DNA of 34,585 nucleotides from Candidatus Thorarchaeota archaeon. Lineage in GTDB: Archaea; Asgardarchaeota; Thorarchaeia; Thorarchaeales; Thorarchaeaceae. The stretch lies in contig JBHLQH010000035.1 in NCBI GenBank assembly GCA_048884965.1, positions 1 to 34,585 on the forward strand, in the 5' to 3' direction. Below are positions 2,448 to 34,585 of this stretch, one piece after another; position 1 is the stretch's first letter, and every line of letters begins with the position of its first letter. The translations under genes and the position numbers were made by a program. The notes under the pieces are model-generated. The model searched no databases. It was given only the letters and a program-made list of their open reading frames with translations, and was not told where the DNA came from.

Positions 2448-3230
2448 ATGATTACGATGACGATAACAGAGTACACAGGCGACTTTTCAAGACTTACAGT
2501 GCTCTTTACTGAACACCGCCGAAGGAAACCGATGATTGATTTCTGTCTACGTCAATCCAAGGGTCGGATGCTAGTCGATTCCACTGAATCTCCCACATCA
2601 GCCCTACTGGTCTACAGGTCCGCTCATGTGATCGCAGGAGACATCACGAACCATGGATTCCTAGAGCCAGCTCTGTCGAATATTCCCAGGAATATCTGGG
2701 GGCTAATGATTCCAAATGAGGAATGGATCCCCCTTCTCACCAAGTATTGGAAGCATGGATTTGAAACCATCAAGCGTATAGAGCTAGCCTCTGATAGACT
2801 TGAACTATCCCATTTGATGAAATATACAGAAGTCCCTGAAGGATATTCACTCCAGAGATTCGGAAAACAGCATATCTTGAACATCCATATGGACCTCCTT
2901 TATGATGCCATCATTGATTTTGAGTCCTTCAAGAATTTCGAAAAAGAAGGCTTGGCTTTCTGTGTCGTCAAGGATACTGAAGATAGCAAGATCATCAGCA
3001 TTGCATCATCAGTATATCCATTTACCACTGAACTGGAAATTCAGGTAAAGACGCATCCTGAATACCGTCGTCAAGGATTCGCACTCTCTTCTTCTGCAGC
3101 CCTCATAGAGTATTGCATCAGGAACGATGTGAAGGTCTATGTCGATGCCGCTCATGACGGTTCACGTGATATGGCACTGAAACTTGGCTTCTCCAATCCA
3201 GAGGAATGGAATGTCTACAAACCCATGTGA
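2448..3230 (+). CDS. GNAT family N-acetyltransferase
   Basis: C-terminal acetyl-CoA binding motif EIQVKTHPEYRRQGFA and DAAHDGSRDMALKLGF. Confidence 0.88.
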   Translation: MITMTITEYTGDFSRLTVLFTEHRRRKPMIDFCLRQSKGRMLVDSTESPTSALLVYRSAHVIAGDITNHGFLEPALSNIPRNIWGLMIPNEEWIPLLTKYWKHGFETIKRIELASDRLELSHLMKYTEVPEGYSLQRFGKQHILNIHMDLLYDAIIDFESFKNFEKEGLAFCVVKDTEDSKIISIASSVYPFTTELEIQVKTHPEYRRQGFALSSSAALIEYCIRNDVKVYVDAAHDGSRDMALKLGFSNPEEWNVYKPM

Positions 3231-3250
3231 GAGAAGTCATCATTTTCCTG

Positions 3251-3481
3251 CTATGAAGGCATCTCAACTCGAAGATTATTGACCTCTTGAACTCTCTCCC
3301 GCATGAGGAGCAATAGTCCCACGACAAAGATCACAACACCTCCCACTATCCAGACATCTCCCCACAATCTACCACTAGTTGCAGATACCTGTCCATTCAA
3401 GATAACCATGAATACTCCTAAGAACATCATGAAATGGATATAGCGTCTTCTTTGCCACTCAGGACTTCCATATCGTACCAT
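3251..3481 (-). CDS. Small two-TM membrane protein (76 aa)
   Basis: Probable start ATG 3481 (MVRYGSPEWQRRRY), followed by two hydrophobic helices. The longer track ORF overlaps the start region of the divergent neighbour. Confidence 0.55.
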   Translation of the reverse strand: MVRYGSPEWQRRRYIHFMMFLGVFMVILNGQVSATSGRLWGDVWIVGGVVIFVVGLLLLMRERVQEVNNLRVEMPS

Positions 3482-3597
3482 GGCACGTTTCTCCTGTTGT
3501 AGAACCAAAAACGAGATTGAATAAACCTTCACATCCCGAATCGATAATAACATCAAATATACAAAAGACACAAAATAGAATACCCATTACCTACTCG

Positions 3598-4116
3598 ATG
3601 TTCACAATGACTTCAGAATCAAGTAGCTTCTCATGGAAAGGGTTAGTAGCACTCATCGTCATTCTCATTATAGTGAGTGTTGTTGCATTTGTGCTGTCAA
3701 GTATCGAGAGCTTTCTTGCTGGTGTAATTGTACTATTCATAGGTTTTCTACTTAGCTTCTTCAGAGATGATTTGAAACGAGCGCTTGGTCTGGCATCACA
3801 ACATAGAGAGTCGACACCTCCAATGGATGTCGAAGAAGAGCCTCTGGATAAACTGGACAAGATGATTCTCTTGGATCTGGACAAGAAAATTGCCAAGGAG
3901 CGACAGAATATCGCCAAGCTGATCTCCAAGTATGAGGAGAAGCCAAAGAAACAGGATAAGATTGGAGTTCAAATCGTGGAAGAAGCCACAACGTTGCTCG
4001 CTTTGCTAGATCGAGCAAAGGCTCAAGCGATCCAAATAGATGAATCTCAATTAGTTCAGCATTATGAGAGCATTGCATCTGATGTTGAGAAGATACGTGA
4101 AGCGTATCGAAAGTAG
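3598..4116 (+). CDS. Hypothetical membrane protein, two N-terminal TM helices plus a helical/coiled-coil C-terminus
   Basis: Hydrophobic WKGLVALIVILII...GFLLSFF followed by a charged helical region. Start is ATG 3598 or 3607. Confidence 0.7.
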   Translation: MFTMTSESSSFSWKGLVALIVILIIVSVVAFVLSSIESFLAGVIVLFIGFLLSFFRDDLKRALGLASQHRESTPPMDVEEEPLDKLDKMILLDLDKKIAKERQNIAKLISKYEEKPKKQDKIGVQIVEEATTLLALLDRAKAQAIQIDESQLVQHYESIASDVEKIREAYRK

Positions 4117-4376: not shown

Positions 4377-4483
4377 TGGTGGGCCCGCGGAGATTTGAAC
4401 TCCGGACCGTTCCCCTGCCCAATGGAAATCATTAGGCATACAGGTTATGAGCCTGCTGCTCTACCAAGCTGAGCTACGGGCCC
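4377..4483 (-). tRNA. tRNA-Ile2 (anticodon CAT; tRNA-Met not excluded) with a 30-nt intron at position 43/44 and encoded CCA
   Basis: GGGCCCG acceptor stem, D-arm GCTC/GAGC, anticodon arm GCAGG-CTCATAA-CCTGT, T-arm CGGAG-TTCAAAT-CTCCG, then CGGGCCC-A-CCA. Removing 4410-4439 gives a 77-nt cloverleaf. Confidence 0.92.
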
Positions 4484-5140: not shown

Positions 5141-5218
5141 GCCCCGGTAGTGTAGTCCGGCCCAGCATAAGGGACTTTCGATTCCTTGACCCGGGTTCGA
5201 ATCCCGGCCGGGGCACCA
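5141..5218 (+). tRNA. tRNA-Glu (TTC), intronless, encoded CCA
   Basis: GCCCCGG/CCGGGGC acceptor stem, anticodon arm AGGGA-CTTTCGA-TTCCT, T-arm CCGGG-TTCGAAT-CCCGG, then ACCA. Confidence 0.96.
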
Positions 5219-26040: not shown

Positions 26041-26595
26041 CTACAGTGCCTCATTAAGGGCTCTGTCCTCTCTCTCTTTTTGCTCAGCCAAAATGCCCTT
26101 TAGTTTGTGCTTGAGCTGTGCCTTTAATCGAATTCTATCCTGATCCAGGCCAAAATAGTCCGCGAAGAGCGGGGTGGTCTTGAGCATCTTGCTCCTGCCT
26201 TCCGGAATCGCCTCGATGAACTTCTTCTCTTCGAGTTCCTTGACATGGTCATAACAATGTGTGCCTCGTTGAGCGACAAGATCTGATTGGATGATTGGCT
26301 GTTTCAAAGCGATGAAGACAAGAGTCTGCAGAGTAGCAAATGATAAGAGACCTCCAGGAATGAGTTTTCCAACTCTCGGAGTCAACTCCGGCTTGAGTTG
26401 CATGACATATCTGTCACGTGGCAAGCCGATAACCTCAAGGGCTCCCTTGCGCTTGTTGTACGTGAAGCTAAGGTCCTCAAGGATTTTCCTCGCAGTAGAC
26501 TCTGCTTTTCCGATAAGTTCGGCAAGCTCCTGAAGGGTCAATGCTCTCCCTGCTGCATAGAGGGCTGCTTCAATAGTTAGCATATCTTCACTCAT
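26041..26595 (-). CDS. scpB: SMC-Scp complex KITE subunit ScpB
   Basis: IEAALYAAG, LQTLVFIALKQPI.Q..L...RG, GRS..L.TT..FADYFGL; directly follows scpA. Confidence 0.93.
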   Translation of the reverse strand: MSEDMLTIEAALYAAGRALTLQELAELIGKAESTARKILEDLSFTYNKRKGALEVIGLPRDRYVMQLKPELTPRVGKLIPGGLLSFATLQTLVFIALKQPIIQSDLVAQRGTHCYDHVKELEEKKFIEAIPEGRSKMLKTTPLFADYFGLDQDRIRLKAQLKHKLKGILAEQKEREDRALNEAL

Positions 26596-26599
26596 TACA

Positions 26600-27316
26600 T
26601 CACAGCTCCAGTTGAGCTTGAGCCTCAAGAGAGTCGTCGTCATCATTGATAAGTGGTGGCTTAAGAAGCTGAACCTGAATGATTCCTTCCTCATCCTCCC
26701 ATATATCAATGAACCTTCTTGCATAGAGATGCAGCAATGCGAAGAAGACGCGAACGATCTCTCGCCTAGTTCGATTCATCAGGATATCCATGAATTTAGC
26801 GATCTCTCCGACCTTCATTAGGCTTCGAAGGTCGTCAAGTACCTCTTCGATGTTCTCCTCAACGTCTGCCCTCTCAACTTCCATCTTAAAGGTGAGAGGA
26901 TCCGCTCGAGACCGTACTTTCTGCCGTGTTGGGCTGGCTCGTGAACGAACACCTTTGGTCAATACTCTGTCCATTGCAATGAGAAGCTCTTGGAGAGTCA
27001 CACGTCTATTCGTAAGTCTGAATGGAGGATGAATCATCGGGATCTCAAAATCATCATCGTCACTGACCTCCTCTGGTGGAAGAATTCCAAGCTCAACTAG
27101 GTCTCTAGTCTTCTTCATGAAGATGACCGAAGCCGAGTACAATGCATTACCCGAAACTCGGAAATCAATATCCCCGATACGCTTCATCTCTCTAAGGAAC
27201 GCGGCTACTAGCTTGCCTACGTCGATGTTCCATGGTTCTACCTTGTCAAGCTGCAGGACATCCGTCAACAAGATATACGGAGGTGTAGCCCAGAATGGAG
27301 AGTCATCATCGTTCAT
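26600..27316 (-). CDS. scpA: Kleisin ScpA
   Basis: EPWNIDV, SGNALYSASV, RRVTLQELL, and C-terminal FFALLHL; overlaps the smc stop. Confidence 0.9.
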   Translation of the reverse strand: MNDDDSPFWATPPYILLTDVLQLDKVEPWNIDVGKLVAAFLREMKRIGDIDFRVSGNALYSASVIFMKKTRDLVELGILPPEEVSDDDDFEIPMIHPPFRLTNRRVTLQELLIAMDRVLTKGVRSRASPTRQKVRSRADPLTFKMEVERADVEENIEEVLDDLRSLMKVGEIAKFMDILMNRTRREIVRVFFALLHLYARRFIDIWEDEEGIIQVQLLKPPLINDDDDSLEAQAQLEL

Positions 27317-30300
27317 GCTGATTCTGCTACCTCCTCCAAGTCAACAGAAAGAATCTTTGACAACCCATCATGACTTGATACCCCCAAGAGGAGATCTGCC
27401 TTTCTGAATGTCGGCTGTCTTAGCGAAACGACGATGAATTGCGATGACTTTGATAGTTCGGAGATAAGATTAGCTACATTATGTGCATTAACATCATCGA
27501 GGGCTGCATCAATCTCATCGAAGACATAGAAGCTTGCAGGACTATACATCTGAATGGCGAATATCAGAGCCAGACCTGTCAAGGTCTTCTCCCCGCCACT
27601 CATCGAATCCAAGCTGACAAGCTCTTTTCCTCTTGGCTTGGACCGGACAGTAATGCCTCCCATGAGCGGATGCTCAGGGTTCTCAAGCATCAATGTTGCC
27701 TCCCCTCCTGGGGATAGCTTTGCGAAGACCCGGGCGAAATTGTCAGCTATCTCGTTGTAAACGATGAGGAACTTCCTAGTCTTCTCTCTCTCCAGTTCTT
27801 CCATGAATGCAAGGATTTCCTTATGCTCTTCCTCGAGCTTTGTCTTCTTGTCGACAATCTCATCATATCTCAGTTTCTCTGCATCATAATCATCAAGCGA
27901 CTTGAGATTGACCGCACCAATCGCTTCTTGCTCTCGCTCAAGCTCCCTGATTTTCTCCTCAAGGTCCTCTATCTGTTTATAGGTCAATTCCTCTCTATTG
28001 ACACGGTTCGCAATCTCATCCTCGACCTCCGTCATAATGGAGAGTTCTGCAGTAAAAGCGACAAGATCTGTTTCGAGGCGTGACTGTTCGGTTTGAAGCC
28101 TATAGACTGATTTCTCATTCGAAGTCTGTGCCTCACGAATCTCCTCATGGCGTAGACGAAGGTTTCTCATCTCTTCCTTCAGCTGAAGTTGCTTTACCCT
28201 CTTGTCCTTGACTTCATCCTCGATCCTGTCCCGCTTTGACTTGAGTCCATCCAGACTTTCTTGTTTTTCATTGAAGAGTTCCTCAAGTCTGTTAACTTCA
28301 GCTTCTTGTCCAGGAAGGACAGTCAGTATCGATTGATAGCGTGTTTCCAACTCAACGGACTTGGGATTGAGTCTTTCCTCAAGTGCGACCTTGAGACCTG
28401 TAAGTTCTCCTGTTAGAGTTTCTCGTTCACGTTTATGGTGTTCAAGGACCTCTTTCAGATCCTTGATCTCTTGATTGAGCTGATTCGCATCAGACTTCAC
28501 GAGGGCTTCATTGGCTTCATCGCGCAATGACCTCACAGTCTCACGGTGCTCGCTCAGCTCAGTGTTTCTCTCGCGAAGACTGCTTACTTGGGTTTCTAGG
28601 GCTTCGATAGTCTTCTGCGCTATGGTAATCTTCTGTTGCAGTGCATTGATTCGCGATTCCTTTTCATTGAACTGCTCATCGAGCTTCTCGACTTCTAATC
28701 GCGTTCGATAGTTAGCTTGGGATAGCTTCTCGATCTCCCGTTCAAGGTCCTTTCGTCGGAGTGCGATCTCTTTCTGTTGCTCCCTCACGTCTGCAAGTAT
28801 CTCTTCTAGTCCTTCAAGGCGTTTTGCGATCTCTGGGCTGTTATCCTCGACCTGCAGTGAGAGGCCTGCGCCACTCTTCTGGAAATAGCCTCCTGTGACA
28901 AGACCTGTCGTTTCTACTAGGTCACCATCCAGTGATACTGCCCTGTACTTGCTAAAACCTATCTTTTTGGCAGTTTCAAAATCCTCTGTTACTACTGTAT
29001 CCTGAAAGACATATTGAAATGCTGGTTCGAATTTCAAGTCATAATCGACTAAATCTATTGCAAATCCAAGTACCCGCATATCCGATGGGAGCTTTCCTGT
29101 GGCTCGAGATTTGATTTTGTTCAGCGGAATGAATGAAACTCTTCCCGCACGCTCTCGCTTGAGTACATTGATGCACTTGGTGGCGACTTCCTCATCGTCC
29201 ACGACGACATGCGACAGTCTATTGCCTCCGGCAACCTCCATTGCGATGATATACTCAGGATCGATCTTTCCGAGTTCTGCTACTGTACCATAGATGCCTG
29301 CGATCTCTCCTGAGTCGCGAAGTTCTAGGACTCGTGAGATTGCTCTCCTTCTTTTGAGAAAAGCTTCCTCTGCATCCTTCAAAGCGTCTTGACGCGCCTG
29401 GATTCGAATGAGTTCTTCTCTTGTTTCACTAACGATACGAGCTGCTTCACTCGCTTCCCCATCCACCCGCACTTGGCGCGCCTCAAGGTCCTCTAGTTCA
29501 GCTCGTTTTGTTTCCTCGAGTTTATCACTTACTTCCAAAGCCTTCTTCTTCTCAGGTAGGCTGGCACGGAGTTCCTCAATGCCCTTCTGGGTTTCTTCGA
29601 GGTTCTGCTGGGAGTCCTGCACTTCCTCATACGCCATTCCCAACTCTCTACCATCGGTCTTTATCGCTGACCGGACCTCAGAAACGCCCTCGTCAAGTGC
29701 TATCATTTGATTATTCAAATCTTGTAATCGCTGCGCGGTTTCGTAGTAGTTAGCTTGCTCTCTCTCGAATTGCTCATCAAGTTTCTGAATATCTTGTTGA
29801 CATTCCTCTATCTCTTTGTCAAGCTTGGCAAGCTCACTTTCTTTCTCGCTCACCTTCGCTTCCGCACTCGTAGTCTGAGTCTGTACGAGTTCCTTCTCCT
29901 CGTCAATGACCTCTTTTTGTGCAAGGATCCGTTCAAGCTCATCCTTAGCACGCATCATCTCTGATTCAACATGACTGACAGCAGCGGATGCCTGTCCGTA
30001 CTCCTCAGATATTCTTGCGGAATCACCACCAGTTATCCTATCGATCTCCGCGTCAATATTCTCAATGTCCGCCTCAGTCTGGTCTTGTTTGCTCTCGACT
30101 TCCGCCAGTTCTCTGGCGAGCTGTTCCACCTCTTGTGCGCGTTCAGCAAGGGTCTCATTAATTGTGACAATTCTATTGCGACCTTTGAGTATCGTCCAAG
30201 CGAGGCGGTCAATCTCGATACGCTGAATCTCATTCTTCGCGCCCATGTATCTGAGGGCGTCCTCTCTCTCAAGCTCGAGCTTCTCCAACTGTCGGCGTCT

Positions 30301-30903
30301 TTCAATTAGTTGTGTTTCGACCTTTCCAAGATTGGTCTCACTCTCGGCAAGCTTTTTGAGAGCACGTTCCTTTTGCTCGTCGTAAGCTGAGATACCTGCT
30401 ATCTCTTCGATAAGCTTCCTTCTGTCAACCGGACTGACCTTGACCATCTGAGCAATCTCGCCCTGTAGTACCAGATTGTATCCGTTTGGATCGACACCAA
30501 TGCTTCCAAGGATGTCAAGCACTGCTTGTCGAGTTACTACCTTTCCATTTATTCTGCAGGTCGATTTTCCCGAGTCATCCAATTCTCTCTCGACGACAAC
30601 CTTGTCAGCATCTACTTGCAATTTCCTATCCTTGTTATTGAAATGTAGCTCGACGATCGCGGACTTGGCTTTCGGAGGCATGTCTGGTTTTGGAGGGGAG
30701 TATAGGAGGTCTGAGAAGACATTGGCTCGTAGAGTCTTTGCACTGAGTTGTCCTAGCACGAAAAGAATTGCATCTATGACATTCGACTTGCCAGATCCGT
30801 TGGGTCCGACTATACAGGTAAAACCACGGTTCATCCTGACAGTTACAGCATCTCGTCCAAATGACTTGAAGCCCCTGCAGACTAGCTTCTCAATATGGAC
30901 CAA
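27313..30903 (-). CDS. smc: Chromosome segregation protein SMC
   Basis: GFKSFG, Walker A GPNGSGKSN, Q-loop VLQGEI, coiled coils, hinge GIYGTVAELG..GRVSFIPLNKI..GLVTGG, signature MSGGEK, Walker B FDEIDAALD. Confidence 0.98.
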   Translation of the reverse strand: MVHIEKLVCRGFKSFGRDAVTVRMNRGFTCIVGPNGSGKSNVIDAILFVLGQLSAKTLRANVFSDLLYSPPKPDMPPKAKSAIVELHFNNKDRKLQVDADKVVVERELDDSGKSTCRINGKVVTRQAVLDILGSIGVDPNGYNLVLQGEIAQMVKVSPVDRRKLIEEIAGISAYDEQKERALKKLAESETNLGKVETQLIERRRQLEKLELEREDALRYMGAKNEIQRIEIDRLAWTILKGRNRIVTINETLAERAQEVEQLARELAEVESKQDQTEADIENIDAEIDRITGGDSARISEEYGQASAAVSHVESEMMRAKDELERILAQKEVIDEEKELVQTQTTSAEAKVSEKESELAKLDKEIEECQQDIQKLDEQFEREQANYYETAQRLQDLNNQMIALDEGVSEVRSAIKTDGRELGMAYEEVQDSQQNLEETQKGIEELRASLPEKKKALEVSDKLEETKRAELEDLEARQVRVDGEASEAARIVSETREELIRIQARQDALKDAEEAFLKRRRAISRVLELRDSGEIAGIYGTVAELGKIDPEYIIAMEVAGGNRLSHVVVDDEEVATKCINVLKRERAGRVSFIPLNKIKSRATGKLPSDMRVLGFAIDLVDYDLKFEPAFQYVFQDTVVTEDFETAKKIGFSKYRAVSLDGDLVETTGLVTGGYFQKSGAGLSLQVEDNSPEIAKRLEGLEEILADVREQQKEIALRRKDLEREIEKLSQANYRTRLEVEKLDEQFNEKESRINALQQKITIAQKTIEALETQVSSLRERNTELSEHRETVRSLRDEANEALVKSDANQLNQEIKDLKEVLEHHKRERETLTGELTGLKVALEERLNPKSVELETRYQSILTVLPGQEAEVNRLEELFNEKQESLDGLKSKRDRIEDEVKDKRVKQLQLKEEMRNLRLRHEEIREAQTSNEKSVYRLQTEQSRLETDLVAFTAELSIMTEVEDEIANRVNREELTYKQIEDLEEKIRELEREQEAIGAVNLKSLDDYDAEKLRYDEIVDKKTKLEEEHKEILAFMEELEREKTRKFLIVYNEIADNFARVFAKLSPGGEATLMLENPEHPLMGGITVRSKPRGKELVSLDSMSGGEKTLTGLALIFAIQMYSPASFYVFDEIDAALDDVNAHNVANLISELSKSSQFIVVSLRQPTFRKADLLLGVSSHDGLSKILSVDLEEVAESA

Positions 30904-30985
30904 GATGTTTTCCCTTCCGTTTACTCAACTAACAGCATTTGGCGTGTCTGTCATATCTGGGGGATACAGACTCCTAAATATCGTT

Positions 30986-31024
30986 GGTATGACCTAGGTA
31001 ATACCAGAGCTATATCTAGATATA
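30986..31024. promoter_or_regulatory. Two adjacent CTAG-centred palindromes upstream of smc
   Basis: GGTATGACCTAGGTAATACC (30986-31005, one mismatch) and TATATCTAGATATA (31011-31024, perfect). Confidence 0.35.
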
Positions 31025-31087
31025 CCTCCCAGTATTGAAAATTTACCAGAGAAGGCTAAAAAAGGATAACTCTGGTGGCCTTTTTGC

Positions 31088-31453
31088 CTATCCGACCATA
31101 GAAACGAGGGCGCGCTTTAGCGCCATCCGGATAAGACCGGCTTGTTCTCGAGCACCTTCTCCTGCTATACCTGCTAGGACCATCTTGACATCTCCAAGAA
31201 TGAAGACATAACCTTCCTCAGCTGCGATGGTCAGCTCCTTCAGACCTCCCATATCGATTCCTGCTGTCAGTTGGGATGAGTTCGCTGAGATTTTCACAAC
31301 TAGTTTTGCAACATCTGAATGCTTGATGCCTTCAGATATCGTGTGGGCGAAGATAACTTCCCCTTTCGCGTCACAAACAACGATTCCTTGAATGTCCGCG
31401 TGTGCCGCCATTGTTTCACTGACGATCTGTTCAATCTTAGCTGTGTCAACCAT
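31088..31453 (-). CDS. Roadblock/LC7 domain protein
   Basis: Helix, IQGIVVCDAKGEVI, helix, ELTIAAEEGYVFI beta strands, then AGLIRMALKRA: roadblock topology. Confidence 0.82.
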   Translation of the reverse strand: MVDTAKIEQIVSETMAAHADIQGIVVCDAKGEVIFAHTISEGIKHSDVAKLVVKISANSSQLTAGIDMGGLKELTIAAEEGYVFILGDVKMVLAGIAGEGAREQAGLIRMALKRALVSMVG

Positions 31454-31630
31454 TTCGTTTACCCCTTGGAGGTCTCTATCATTGTGATACTCTTGACCGG
31501 TTTAAATATTGCTCTTTATCATGCAACCGCTTGATATCACGAATAATCCCTAGTGGTATGGGAAAATCATAGAACTACTTAATACCTTTCACGTAGAAGA
31601 CCGCCCAACCAATTTTGGGGGTATCAAGAG

Positions 31631-33259
31631 ATGCCTATGTTGAGAACTAGCTCAGAGTCTTTTCCAGCATCAAAGAAGATGATGAGCGATATACCGTACG
31701 TCCTTCGTGTCGGTTTTGGTGACCTTGGGAGCGACGTAACGAAGATTGTAGGATTGCCTATCGCATGTCAAAAATGTGGTGGCTTCCTCATTAGTGTAGA
31801 TCAGGTAAATGATGATGAGAAAGTCGGAAAGCACTTTACCTGTGCGTTTTGCGGAACATTGAATATTATCGGGGGAGAGGTCATTCTTGCTGGAAATGAC
31901 ACCGACTTCGTGATTAAATCCCCTCCAGACACGACCCAAACCGGTACAGACACGGTTACTGTTGGAGGAAAATCATTCCTTGCATTGATCGACGTTTCTG
32001 GATCCATGGCTGGAGCCAATCTGTCAGCTGTGAAAAGGAGTCTGAACACATCCATCGACAGCTTGGCTGCCAACTCACCTGACACTTTCTTTGGACTAAT
32101 AGAGTTCGAAAGTAGTGTTCATTATCGTGACTTGGAAAGCGGGAGTGGCGTTCAGCTACCCTACGAATCATTTCCAAGCTACGATAAGATCGTTGAGGAG
32201 ACAAAGAAGCTGCTTGACAAGATCAAGCTGGTTCCAGTAGGAAAGCACTCTGACAAGCTAAAGAAACATGTAGATACCTTGCGTGATCAAGGAGGTACAG
32301 CATTAGGCCCTGCAGTAGCCATGGCTTCTGTTATTGCCAAGCATAGAAATGTCGGACGTGTCGTTCTTCTGACTGATGGTCTTGCGAATGAAGGAATTGG
32401 CGCCCTTGAAGGGTATCAGGTCACTCCGGCCAATGCGTTCTATGAGGACTTAGGCAAGAGATTCATGGATCTCGGCTCTGCAGTGGATGTCGTAGGTATT
32501 GCTTCTGGAGCAGGCATGGAGCTGAAGACCCTTGGACTATTGGCTGAGGCCACAGGTGGTCAGATGTACTATGTCACTCCCAACGAGCTTGATAGAAGCA
32601 TCTCAGAGCTTGCTGGTGCTCGACTTCTCGGCAGGGATGTACAGGTCAAGTTGATCACTCCTAAGGGAATCAAGGTCAAGGACGCATCTGGAGTATCCCG
32701 TGCTGTTATAGATGATCTTACCAAGAATAAGGAGAGTAAGATCGGTGTGGTCGGAGCGGACCATGAGCTCTACTTCGAGGTCGAACCAGAGAGCGAGATC
32801 AAGGAATCTGAGGTGCCCATTCAAGTACAGGTCGAGTATACCGATGAGGAAGGTGCCCGCAGAGTTCGTGCAGTTACGACCACGCTCAAGGTATCCAAGA
32901 GTGAGGATGAGGTCCTAGAAACCCTCGACCCAACTCTGGGAGCCACTTTCGTCACCCAAAAGGCTGGCGAGGAATCCTTCTCAGGTGATAGGAAGAAGGG
33001 CAAGAAGCGCATTGCTGCCTTCAGGTCGGCCATGAAGGAGTATGCCAAGGACGCTCCTGAGGAAACTCAGGCAATGTACGATAAGACCGAAAAGGCCCTT
33101 GAAGCTGAAGAGAATGAGATGGATCGTCTGGAAGAGATGATGGATGCTGAGCCTTCTATGGCACCATCCGCTGCAGCTGATGAAGCCTTCACCAAGGGCT
33201 TGGCACAGATGCGAAAGAGCTCCAAACAAATGTTCGAAGAAGAAGAAGAGGACGAGTAA
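31631..33259 (+). CDS. Sec23/Sec24-like protein (Zn finger, vWA trunk, beta-sandwich, short helical region)
   Basis: CQKCGG..FTCAFCGTLN Zn finger; IDVSGSM MIDAS, GGTALGPA, LLTDGLAN; QVEYTDEEGARRVRAVT (cf. Sec23/24 Y...GxRRIRVxT); acidic tail. Confidence 0.82.
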   Translation: MPMLRTSSESFPASKKMMSDIPYVLRVGFGDLGSDVTKIVGLPIACQKCGGFLISVDQVNDDEKVGKHFTCAFCGTLNIIGGEVILAGNDTDFVIKSPPDTTQTGTDTVTVGGKSFLALIDVSGSMAGANLSAVKRSLNTSIDSLAANSPDTFFGLIEFESSVHYRDLESGSGVQLPYESFPSYDKIVEETKKLLDKIKLVPVGKHSDKLKKHVDTLRDQGGTALGPAVAMASVIAKHRNVGRVVLLTDGLANEGIGALEGYQVTPANAFYEDLGKRFMDLGSAVDVVGIASGAGMELKTLGLLAEATGGQMYYVTPNELDRSISELAGARLLGRDVQVKLITPKGIKVKDASGVSRAVIDDLTKNKESKIGVVGADHELYFEVEPESEIKESEVPIQVQVEYTDEEGARRVRAVTTTLKVSKSEDEVLETLDPTLGATFVTQKAGEESFSGDRKKGKKRIAAFRSAMKEYAKDAPEETQAMYDKTEKALEAEENEMDRLEEMMDAEPSMAPSAAADEAFTKGLAQMRKSSKQMFEEEEEDE

Positions 33260-33271
33260 TAGTTCTCTACT

Positions 33272-33316
33272 TGAGTGACGTACATAACGTCACTCATTTC
33301 ATTTTTTGTTATTTTC
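33272..33316 (+). terminator. Hairpin terminator after the Sec23/24-like gene
   Basis: TGAGTGACGT-ACATA-ACGTCACTCA (perfect 10-bp stem) followed by TTTCATTTTTTGTTATTTT. Confidence 0.7.
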
Positions 33317-33468
33317 CAGTCTTTCAATCACGATTGCACGTAATACAAGGTTATAACAGAATGCGCAAAAACGTATACTTGTGCTGAATTCATATCCGCA
33401 ACTCTAAAATAGTCACGCGAGGCGTAGAGTTTGCGAATTGCACAAGATTGCAGCGGGGATTCCCTAGT

Positions 33469-33768
33469 TTGATAAGTCAAGATAAACTTCAAGCGATTCT
33501 TCAGAGGCTTAGGGCACAAGAAGGTGTCCGAGGAGTCGTAGTTACAACAATGGAAGGATTGCCTCTCAGTAGTGACATAGACCCAGACACCACAGAATCT
33601 GTTGCTGCGATCATAACCTCCTTGGTCGGCAAGGCGCTTGATGCCGTGCGTGAACTCAAGGAAGGTTCGCTATCGTTCCTGACCCTGGACACAACCAAGG
33701 GACAGATAAACATCGCACCGGAACCCAAAGAGGGAGTAATCCTGGTAGTCTTAAAGGATAACGAATGA
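33469..33768 (+). CDS. Roadblock/LC7 domain protein
   Basis: LQAILQRL..EGVRGVVVTTMEGLPL..ESVAAIITSL..LTLDTTKGQINIAP..ILVVL, a classic LC7/roadblock pattern. Probable TTG start at 33469. Confidence 0.9.
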   Translation: MISQDKLQAILQRLRAQEGVRGVVVTTMEGLPLSSDIDPDTTESVAAIITSLVGKALDAVRELKEGSLSFLTLDTTKGQINIAPEPKEGVILVVLKDNE

Positions 33769-33781
33769 AGGAGAAACGAAA

Positions 33782-34243
33782 ATGTCGGAACCCAAGGTAT
33801 TTGATAAAATATTGACTGAAATAATCAGGCAGGATCGAGGAATTAAGAAAGTCATCCTCGTCGACAAGACTGGCCTGACCATCGCTAACGTCAGTAAGCT
33901 TTCTGCCTTCGTCGTTGATACGGACAGCATTGGTGCGATCGCGAGTGCTGTGTTCTGTGCAAGTGAAGAGCAGGGCAAGAACCTTCAGATAGGTGAGCTT
34001 GAGATAGTGACCTCTGAGTTCTCTGAAGGAAAGATCTTTGCATCTGCTTGCGGAAAGGGTGTGCTCTGTGTCGTGTCTGAGGCTGAGGTCAATATTGGTA
34101 TGATCCGCCTCGTCATGAAGAAGCAGGGTGTACAGCTTGCGGATGAACTTGACAAGTTTCTCGCAGTTGAGCCTTCACCTGGTAAAGACGAGCTTGACGA
34201 AGAGGACCTGAAGTCTGCGCTCGAAGAGCTCGAGAGAGTGTAG
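33782..34243 (+). CDS. Roadblock protein, MglB-like, with acidic C-terminal helix
   Basis: VILVDKTGLTI, DTDSIGAIASA, NIGMIRLVMKK (cf. MglB lGlvRl..K), then tail ELDEEDLKSALEELERV. GGAG RBS. Confidence 0.85.
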   Translation: MSEPKVFDKILTEIIRQDRGIKKVILVDKTGLTIANVSKLSAFVVDTDSIGAIASAVFCASEEQGKNLQIGELEIVTSEFSEGKIFASACGKGVLCVVSEAEVNIGMIRLVMKKQGVQLADELDKFLAVEPSPGKDELDEEDLKSALEELERV

Positions 34244-34427
34244 AGTCCTCATACTCTACAAAACTCCCTCTAACAATACCTGTGTATGCTCAAGCAAGGC
34301 TTTTATGAGATTGGACTTCTAAGACTCTCAACCTCCCTATGCAGGGCTGGGACCCAGAGCAGCTCGCTGCCCCGGTGTGCTGTGAGAATGAACCGATAGT
34401 AACTGCGATTCAAAGAGGTGCTATAAC

Positions 34428-34585
34428 GTGCGCAAAGATGACAAGGGACGTATTCATCTGAAGCTGGTCTTCTACGGACCATCACTCGGTGGTAAAACCA
34501 CGGCTTTGAGATGGCTTTACGGGAAAGTAGAGGGTCTCCAAAAGGGTGAGTTCACAGCTATAGAAGATGAAACGAACAGAACGCT
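34428..34585 (+). CDS. MglA-like small GTPase, 5' part only (runs off the window)
   Basis: GTG start after GAGGTG; my translation is MRKDDKGRIHLKLVFYGPSLGGKTTALRWLYGKVEGLQKGEFTAIEDETNRT(L), with G1 GxxxxGKT and an MglA-type E.xRTL switch I. Absent from the ORF track. Confidence 0.85.
   Translation, partial: MRKDDKGRIHLKLVFYGPSLGGKTTALRWLYGKVEGLQKGEFTAIEDETNRT

Follow-up and report, generated by a model that had tools for sequence, protein, structure and literature searches.

A Sec23/24-like gene beside an MglA-type GTPase and its roadblock genes in one family of Thorarchaeota

Roadblock proteins and Sec23/24-type proteins have each been described as parts of GTPase systems. In the MglA-MglB(-MglC) system of Myxococcus xanthus and Thermus thermophilus, each GTPase is served by one or two roadblocks; 1:2 MglA:MglB couplings are known, and more than one roadblock partner has precedent (PMC4316618). 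Several different roadblocks per GTPase system are found in Ragulator-Rag. In the COPII coat, Sec23 and Sec24 form a heterodimer, the GTPase is of the Sar1/Arf type, and the Sar1-GAP arginine sits on a gelsolin-like domain of Sec23. Asgard archaea encode Sec23-like proteins which, according to the available part of PMC11914678 (Nat Commun 2025), are devoid of a gelsolin domain and co-precipitate with an Asgard Arf only weakly and in a nucleotide-insensitive manner; in that part of the source a working GTPase partner is not found, only Arf binding is assayed, and roadblock or MglA neighbourhoods of the Sec23-like genes are unmentioned. The ArnA-ArnB complex of Sulfolobus acidocaldarius (8s05) has a VWA domain with a metal-binding MIDAS, a beta-sandwich and a C-terminal helical domain, onto which a Cys4 zinc finger packs.

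The window, by which we mean the whole stretch of 34,585 nucleotides analysed, is an entire contig (C35) of a Thorarchaeota genome. Every open reading frame of the original prediction was found in it: a roadblock gene on the minus strand (Robl1) divergent from a Sec23/24-like gene, which is followed on the plus strand by two roadblock genes and a GTPase gene interrupted by the contig end (Table 1). The last 77 bases of C35 are identical to the end of a second contig (C8), on the opposite strand, and joining the two yields a complete GTPase gene followed by a further roadblock gene, Robl4, and an undecaprenyl-diphosphate-synthase-type gene. This join can be regarded as valid because more than 25 contiguous relatives have the identical gene order across it. 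The cluster therefore has four roadblock genes, which corrects the earlier count of three. Downstream of Robl1 and on its strand lie the SMC, ScpA and ScpB genes, and Robl1 transcription points away from the cluster.

Table 1. Features of the Thorarchaeota locus (window positions, or L003 positions for features reached through the contig join)
Feature	Position	Strand	Description and basis
Robl1	31088..31453	-	121 aa, divergent roadblock/LC7 paralogue; Pfam, PDB, profile-profile
Divergent intergenic spacer, Robl1 / Sec23/24-like gene	31454..31630		177 nt; read directly
Sec23/24-like gene	31631..33259	+	542 aa; Pfam, PDB profile search, AF2 model, Foldseek
Terminator-like element	33272..33315	+	10-bp hairpin and T-rich tract; 13 nt past the Sec23/24-like stop codon
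Conserved block 5' of Robl2	33360..33412	+	AATGCGCAAAA ... TCTAAAATAG
Robl2	33448..33768	+	106 aa, short roadblock; Pfam, PDB
Robl3	33782..34243	+	153 aa, MglB/LAMTOR2-like roadblock, acidic C-terminal extension; Pfam, PDB
MglA-type GTPase, 5' part	34428..34585	+	52 codons, including P-loop GPSLGGKT; runs off the window
MglA-type GTPase, residues 28-187	L003:11633-12112	-	via C35/C8 overlap
Robl4	L003:11231-11608	-	126 aa; Robl_LC7 6.4e-16
UPP-synthase-type gene	L003:10427-11191	-	3' of Robl4

Judged by its sequence, the GTPase is an MglA homologue, in agreement with the original prediction. This is indicated by its best matches among solved structures, which are to MglA (E 5.5e-39 and 1e-36), with the best Arf (1e-12), Rab7 (1.5e-8) and Sar1 (3e-8) far behind, so that its affinity is with MglA rather than with the Arf, Rab, Ras or Sar GTPases. 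It consists of a single G domain of 187 aa, is alike over the full length of MglA (roughly 45% identity), and its motifs fall in a gap-free alignment to the M. xanthus protein, including the stretch from G1 to switch I. Across 21 orthologues, the sequence marks of the MglA family (Group 1 / MglA1 type) are kept: G22, K23 and T24 of the P-loop (GxxxxGK[ST]) and N133, K134 and D136 of G4 (NKxD, here NKRD as in MglA) are invariant, as are T52 of the switch-I Arg-Thr pair (the intrinsic arginine finger of MglA) and T72 and G75 of G3 (T72-x-A-G-Q76, the TxxGQ form starting with Thr instead of Asp); R51 and Q76 are nearly so. Of 25 families sampled over the phylum, 23 yielded an MglA orthologue (E <= 1e-45).

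The four roadblock paralogues have diverged deeply from one another (profile-profile E 1e-7 to 1e-3). Three of them exceed the gathering cut-off of Pfam Robl_LC7 (23 bits): Robl2 (5.5e-17, 61.7 bits), Robl4 (58.3 bits) and Robl3 (3.7e-10, 39.9 bits, with a match to MAPKK1_Int at 2.6e-7). Robl1 falls under it (E 1.3e-3, 18.9 bits) and is tied to the family by PDB entry 9jq8, 'Roadblock/LC7' (E 3e-7), and by profile-profile matches to Robl2 (E 2e-5) and Robl4 (E 5e-5). Robl2, with PDB matches to 7f8f (E 1.9e-26) and DYNLRB1 (about 3e-13 to 5e-13), is the paralogue nearest the eukaryotic dynein light chain roadblock, and the best solved match of Robl3 is M. xanthus MglB (E 2e-5 across residues 13-136; LAMTOR2 0.012). 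The cluster thus shares with MglA-MglB a GTPase gene adjoined by roadblock genes, but differs in having four distant paralogues rather than one or two, in its archaeal host, and in its flanks, which are SMC and a cis-prenyltransferase gene and not motility or Frz genes. With Ragulator it shares the multiplicity of roadblocks and weak matches of Robl3 and Robl2 to the LAMTOR3/MP1, LAMTOR5 and LAMTOR2 families; however, its GTPase is MglA-type and without a C-terminal roadblock domain, and no LAMTOR1-like anchor was identified here.

The association of roadblock and MglA-like genes seen in the original prediction reflects an operon in which the GTPase gene and genes of the roadblock/MglB type are conserved together. 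Several other Asgard families have the order Robl1 | Robl2-Robl3-MglA-Robl4, often flanked by SMC and prenyl synthase genes; Robl1 orthologues adjoin Robl2 in several families, and Robl3 and Robl4 flank MglA in the window's genome as in many other families. In the families examined outside the window's own (f1), such clusters never have a Sec23/24-like gene inside. We consider it probable that the five genes form an ancient MglA-type switch common to many Asgard families and that the Sec23/24-like gene is a separately transcribed neighbour. By analogy with MglA/MglB/MglC and Ragulator, roadblock dimers would dock on MglA and set its GTP/GDP state and location. Robl3, being the most MglB-like paralogue and having an acidic C-terminal extension, is the likeliest of them to act on MglA directly as a GAP-type partner, and Robl1, Robl2 and Robl4 may be co-regulators or a scaffold, roles suggested by distant similarity.

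As for the Sec23/24-like protein, its identity was upheld by the fold comparison. Pfam matches (Sec23_trunk 2.4e-13, Sec23_BS 9.9e-9, zf-Sec23_Sec24 0.019) and the best PDB profile matches, to Sec24 (E 6e-11), agree with an AF2 model (pLDDT 86.9) whose 46 top Foldseek hits are all Sec23 or Sec24 (E 1e-29 to 1e-21, TM about 0.7, alignments of about 510-665 columns). N-terminal strands, a Cys4 zinc finger, a VWA trunk, a beta-sandwich (about 332-422), a probable helical domain (about 425-541) and an acidic tail follow one another, and the zinc finger, trunk and sandwich, and probably the helical domain, have the order and spatial arrangement of COPII Sec23/Sec24, though Pfam Sec23_helical gives no match despite the model's helices at 425-541. 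The zinc-finger cysteines (C46, C49, C71, C74) and the MIDAS residues (D121, S123, S125, T223, D249) are invariant in 28/28 Asgard orthologues. Family and domain set, complete but for the gelsolin domain, are those of the Asgard Sec23-like proteins in the available part of PMC11914678, where Foldseek likewise led to eukaryotic Sec23/24.

There are also differences from COPII Sec23/Sec24. The protein is about 200 residues shorter, its chain ending after the helical domain, and no gelsolin domain was found by Pfam, in the model or in the fold search; it therefore has no catalytic arginine, and according to the model it cannot be a Sar1-type GAP. No second Sec23/24 paralogue was found either, the window's genome and nearly all relatives giving one match each, so that there is no Sec23/Sec24 heterodimer pair. 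The GTPase encoded beside it belongs to the MglA type and not to the Sar1/Arf type. Most likely, the protein acts by itself as a metal-dependent (MIDAS) protein-binding adaptor.

The original prediction took absence of conserved synteny with roadblock and GTPase genes as counting against it, and outside one family this synteny is absent in every lineage examined. Only in f1 does the Sec23/24-like gene sit between Robl1 and Robl2, in nearly all genomes. The sister family (G025) has it unlinked, as do f12, f17, f19 and f26, and in a complete genome (G061) 860 kb separate it from MglA. In the Hermod, Jord, Frey, Heimdall, Borr, Odin and Loki loci, the Sec23/24-like gene is free of roadblock and MglA genes to a distance of 8 kb, and none of its neighbours is conserved across lineages. 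No Sec23/24-like match was obtained in 15 families having MglA, and conversely the Sec23/24-like gene is present in three genomes of f9, a family that gave no MglA match.

Even within f1 the association has been broken. The Sec23/24-like gene is deleted in two genomes, G009 and G017, leaving remnants of 29 and 39 codons, and relocated in a third, G010, the copy of which the tree places within the f1 clade (support 100/99). Despite these events, G009 and G010 have kept the MglA/roadblock module whole, and G017 retains all module genes with Robl1 split from the Robl2-Robl3-MglA-Robl4 unit. Given these losses and the lack of linkage elsewhere, the clustering cannot be taken to denote one functional module including the Sec23/24-like gene. 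Adjacency has outlived divergence of the protein to about 54% identity in f1, which is compatible with selection for co-location. Its retention there is nevertheless non-discriminating, because SMC, a prenyl synthase gene and an uncharacterised 397-aa gene are equally syntenic. We favour reading the adjacency as an insertion, specific to this lineage, in a permissive intergenic spacer and not as proof of one machine; the gene would have entered the divergent Robl1|Robl2 spacer at the base of this one Thorarchaeota family. The locus is tolerant of unrelated insertions: in other Thor genomes, Robl3 and MglA are separated by a gene for a CLC channel, or by a TetR gene together with a methyltransferase gene.

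Transcription signals point in the same direction as the original prediction, which held that a terminator follows the Sec23/24-like gene and that the cluster is not a single transcript. As a feature of the sequence, the terminator was confirmed: a scan located a hairpin of 10 bp (33272-33296) with a T-rich tract after it, folding at -15.2 kcal/mol (z -5.2), with 0/200 shuffles as stable. Robl2 has its own upstream block, conserved in f1 whether the Sec23/24-like gene is upstream, deleted (G009) or elsewhere (G010), which makes it a candidate promoter or regulatory element of the Robl2-Robl3-MglA-Robl4 unit. The 177-nt spacer presumably holds the promoters of both Robl1 and the Sec23/24-like gene. 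From these elements, the cluster is probably not one transcript.

It had been proposed that in Thorarchaeota the Sec23/24-like protein is an effector which the MglA/roadblock switch brings to membranes or poles, the whole making up a GTPase-controlled proto-coat. The adjacency is stable over nearly the whole of f1, the fold is truly that of Sec23/24, eukaryotic Sec23 is an established small-GTPase effector (Bi et al. 2002, cited in PMC11914678), and, as far as the available part of PMC11914678 goes, published tests of Asgard Sec23-like proteins used an Arf-type GTPase only, not MglA. We find this proposal improbable and the link itself unsupported, as the linkage occurs in a single family and broke down three times even there, the genes are unlinked wherever else both occur, their phyletic patterns are uncorrelated, and housekeeping neighbours are equally syntenic; to this are added the signals of separate transcription for the Sec23/24-like gene and the Robl2 unit, a protein with neither a gelsolin domain nor a second paralogue for a heterodimer, and an adjoining GTPase that is not of the Arf/Sar type. 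As the gene lies beside the module in one family only, its position does not demonstrate a primitive vesicle coat. Little credence can be given, too, to co-regulation without contact, in which the Sec23/24-like gene of this family came under the control of a regulatory region that it has in common with Robl1 and is co-expressed with the switch with no protein interaction: its divergence from Robl1 over a short spacer and the family-wide retention of this arrangement would fit, but comparison by eye of that spacer with the block upstream of Robl2 revealed no shared motif.

A further possibility, unlikely though deserving some weight, is that the Sec23/24-like protein is a regulatory scaffold akin to ArnA-ArnB, engaged in phosphorylation- or ligand-dependent signalling, with a relation to MglA that is indirect at most; for example, both might touch motility or cell-surface structures. 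After Sec23/24, Foldseek ranks the bacterial VWA protein 4fx5, the ArnAB complex 8s05 and the ArnB paralogue 5a8j (E 1e-16 to 1e-14 for the ArnB-type structures 8s05 and 5a8j), and 8s05 was deposited as 'an archaeal ortholog of the Sec23/24 core motif'. The domains of ArnA-ArnB recur here, the MIDAS of ArnB is occupied too, the ArnA zinc finger packs against the beta-sandwich (PMC12852372), and neither the five MIDAS residues nor the four cysteines vary among the Asgard orthologues. The ArnB match (E 1e-16, TM 0.49) is, however, far weaker than that to Sec23/24, the zinc finger here is in the same chain, and in the lineages scanned the neighbours of the Sec23/24-like gene include none that encodes an FHA protein, a kinase or a phosphatase.

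The locus bears on the origin of the COPII coat, in that it names MglA, in one family, as a candidate partner of the Sec23/24-like protein. Gene order is weak support for such a partnership because the adjacency is young and confined to that family. It is very improbable that, after insertion, the adaptor was taken into the switch made of MglA and four roadblocks, either as its GTP-dependent effector or as an arm that binds cargo; if this were true, it would be a natural experiment in which a coat-type scaffold is coupled to a small GTPase needing no coat-supplied arginine. As to the ancient switch preferred here, one MglA gene with four roadblock genes recalls the MglA/MglB/MglC switch of bacteria as well as Ragulator with its stacked roadblock dimers, and the cluster is therefore well suited to asking how roadblock GTPase platforms diversified before eukaryotes.

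The open reading frames of the original prediction (Robl1, the Sec23/24-like gene, Robl2, Robl3 and the GTPase) are all present in the window and are backed by Pfam, with Robl1 under the cut-off. The three roadblock/LC7 genes it counted were found, along with a fourth that lies beyond the window. The window is a complete contig, and its final 77 bases (34509-34585) are identical, on the opposite strand, to the end of contig C8 (12036-12112 of locus L003), and joining the two contigs yields a 187-aa GTPase, followed by a fourth roadblock gene (Robl4) and a prenyl synthase gene. The join is validated by more than 25 relatives, in which contigs without a break show the same gene order. The contig break falls inside the MglA gene, whose protein is 91-99% identical across the genera compared, so that the assembly graph may have been split there by co-assembled strains. 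An Rfam scan of the window returned two tRNAs alone and no match within the cluster.

Features of the roadblock/MglA locus and other features discussed (window coordinates unless a contig or locus is given; E-values from Pfam)
Feature	Position	Strand	Remarks
tRNA gene 1	4380-4483	-	104 nt span, consistent with an intron
tRNA gene 2	5141-5215	+
SMC, ScpA, ScpB		-	upstream of cluster
Robl1	31088-31453	-	Robl_LC7 1.3e-3, under cut-off
Sec23/24-like gene	31631-33259	+	542 aa; Sec23_trunk 2.4e-13, Sec23_BS 9.9e-9, zf-Sec23_Sec24 0.019
Robl2	33448-33768	+	Robl_LC7 5.5e-17
Robl3	33782-34243	+	Robl_LC7 3.7e-10
GTPase ORF (MglA)	from 34428, past window end	+	completed by join to C8
Robl4	on C8, after GTPase		Robl_LC7 6.4e-16
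Undecaprenyl-diphosphate-synthase-type gene	on C8, after Robl4
397-aa protein	L003 9120-10310	-	no Pfam match
Second MglA paralogue (examples)	G025:C21:12482-13027
	G009:C45:10104-10643
	G010:C21:258184-258723

The cluster GTPase is, judged by its sequence, an MglA homologue, as had been proposed: its best matches among solved structures are the MglA proteins of M. xanthus and T. thermophilus (E 5.5e-39 and 1e-36), far ahead of Arf (1e-12) and of Rab7 and Sar1 (about 1e-8). The P-loop, the switch-I Arg51-Thr52, the G3 TxAGQ and the G4 NKxD are retained in 21 orthologues, and such motifs characterize Group 1 MglA (PMC4316618). The protein is extremely conserved, at 86-99% identity inside the order and 52-67% across the other aligned families. 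Asgard MglA groups have already been described (bioRxiv 10.1101/2024.02.28.582541), and a Thor MglA/MglB pair has been modelled with AlphaFold3 (PMC13408092); no description of a locus that combines one MglA gene and four roadblock genes was found in the searchable literature.

Robl1 is probably a roadblock protein despite its Pfam score, since it matches a solved Roadblock/LC7 structure (E 3e-7) and its own paralogues in profile-profile comparisons. The four paralogues are mutually distant (profile-profile E 1e-7 to 1e-3), and each of the other three has its own closest relatives: Robl2 the solved roadblock structure 7f8f and dynein light chain roadblock, Robl3 (the most MglB-like of the four, with an acidic C-terminal extension) MglB and LAMTOR2, and Robl4 both CvnB and two roadblock structures, 7f8m and 9jue. 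Thor and Loki roadblock structures are already published (PMC10933270); in a full-text search for 9JUE, 7YH1, 9JQ8, 7F8M and 7F8F, 7YH1 alone was traced, to that paper.

The identification of the Sec23/24-like protein is borne out by its confident structural model (pLDDT 86.9, pTM 0.88): Sec23 and Sec24 chains take all of the first 46 places among its structural matches (E 1e-29 to 1e-21, TM about 0.7), and behind them rank a bacterial VWA protein and ArnAB/ArnB of Sulfolobus. All four zinc-finger cysteines and all five MIDAS positions are invariant among 28 Asgard orthologues, and the gelsolin domain is absent. Asgard Sec23-like proteins are already described in an earlier study, where they likewise have no gelsolin domain and where their co-precipitation with an Asgard Arf was only weak and nucleotide-insensitive (PMC11914678).

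The decisive evidence on whether this gene belongs with the GTPase switch comes from comparative genomics, the source organism being a thorarchaeon. In almost every genome of the window's own family (f1), spanning many genera, the block runs SMC and Robl1 on the minus strand, then, divergently, the Sec23/24-like gene, Robl2, Robl3, MglA, Robl4, the prenyl synthase gene and the gene for the 397-aa protein; the last, 3' of the prenyl synthase gene, is syntenic family-wide at 40-62% identity. Outside f1 the module consists of Robl1 and, divergently, Robl2-Robl3-MglA-Robl4, often still with SMC and the prenyl synthase gene as neighbours, and never contains the Sec23/24-like gene in the sister family (G025), f12 (G035, G083) or representatives of f4, f7, f8, f13, f16, f17 and f19. 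Where these families have a Sec23/24-like orthologue it is located elsewhere, with 860 kb separating it from MglA in G061, a complete genome. Neither a roadblock gene nor MglA occurs within 8 kb of the Sec23/24-like gene at Hermod-, Jord-, Frey-, Heimdall-, Borr-, Odin- or Loki-type loci, and no neighbour of it is common to different lineages there, those met being acyl-CoA dehydrogenase, OPT transporter, Nre and permease genes. The phyletic patterns disagree as well: of 25 sampled families, 23 gave an MglA orthologue and 9 the Sec23/24-like gene, and 15 MglA-bearing families gave no Sec23/24-like match. The Thor-only adjacency of the Sec23/24-like gene to the module was not found described in the searchable literature. 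At three Heimdall-type loci (L103, L106, L109, about 3000-4000), a generic Ras/Rab-like GTPase gene (Pfam Ras 8e-57) lies upstream of the Sec23/24-like gene, about 4 kb away and on the opposite strand, with an unknown gene and one for an amino-acid permease in between; this arrangement is confined to that lineage.

The maximum-likelihood tree of Sec23/24-like proteins follows lineages, with the unlinked G010 copy within the f1 clade (support 100/99) and the unlinked G025 copy sister to it (92/89, on a long branch). These placements imply that the linkage arose once, at the base of f1, and it was later undone three times: the gene was relocated in G010 and deleted in G009 and G017, leaving remnants of 29 and 39 codons. 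All three genomes retain all the MglA and roadblock genes, the G017 cluster being also broken between Robl1 and Robl2. The idea that G010, with no Sec23/24-like gene in its cluster, might preserve the ancestral condition within the family was rejected on account of its congener G089, in which the gene is still in the cluster, and of the position of its own copy inside the family clade.

The predicted terminator is there as a sequence feature, a 10-bp hairpin and U-tract 3' of the Sec23/24-like stop codon (folding z -5.2). About 110 nt 5' of Robl2 are conserved alike in f1 members that have the Sec23/24-like gene there, have lost it or carry it at another place, which fits a separate promoter for a Robl2-Robl3-MglA-Robl4 unit. 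Upstream of Robl2, at 33360-33412, AATGCGCAAAA is followed about 35 nt on by TCTAAAATAG, both conserved across genera; the pair may represent a regulator site and a TATA-like element. A sigma-70 promoter scan was disregarded as inapplicable to an archaeon.

Beyond the observed family identities, conserved motifs, fold and conserved operon, a mechanism may be proposed in which MglA would switch between GTP and GDP with its own arginine, and roadblock dimers would bind it in the role of GAP, co-regulator or scaffold, on the model of MglB and MglC of Myxococcus and the LAMTOR dimers of Ragulator; the dimer expected to serve as GAP would pair Robl3 with Robl2 or Robl4. The Sec23/24-like protein would be a MIDAS- and zinc-dependent binding scaffold acting on its own; it cannot serve as a Sar1-type GAP, and MglA would need none. 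The switch part of the original prediction is supported, with an MglA-type GTPase and roadblock genes in a conserved operon. Its proto-coat part, in which the Sec23/24-like protein is coupled to that switch as one functional module, receives no support from synteny and is a minority possibility. Predicting a complex of the Sec23/24-like protein with MglA, GTP and Mg (alignments of 28 and 21 rows) gave a score of 0.00, which is evidence neither way. A search for longer fused Sec23/24-like forms found no GTPase fusion, such a blank being weak evidence; the sole match (P0001) was a 1089-aa metagenomic protein in which a VWA region is combined with Kelch and ankyrin repeats, 25% identical over 86% of the Sec23/24-like length.

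The locus does accept passenger genes, as indicated by unrelated insertions between Robl3 and MglA, a spacer that is 184 nt long in the window and a hot spot for insertions elsewhere in Thorarchaeota (L080 10576-14505; L072 10607-12915; L060, L064, L074): a CLC chloride channel gene with CBS domains in one genome, and TetR regulator and SAM methyltransferase genes in another. On its other side, Robl1 shares its strand with the downstream SMC, ScpA and ScpB genes (26041-31453, minus strand), with a gap of 184 nt to SMC, and the Robl1-SMC adjacency recurs in the distantly related families f2, f12 and f19 (L057, L154, L141); this hints at a tie between the roadblock/MglA locus and chromosome condensation genes, or merely at old synteny. 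Each Thor genome also carries a second MglA paralogue (49-55% identity), which lies within a much longer open frame (250-358 aa), suggesting an added domain.
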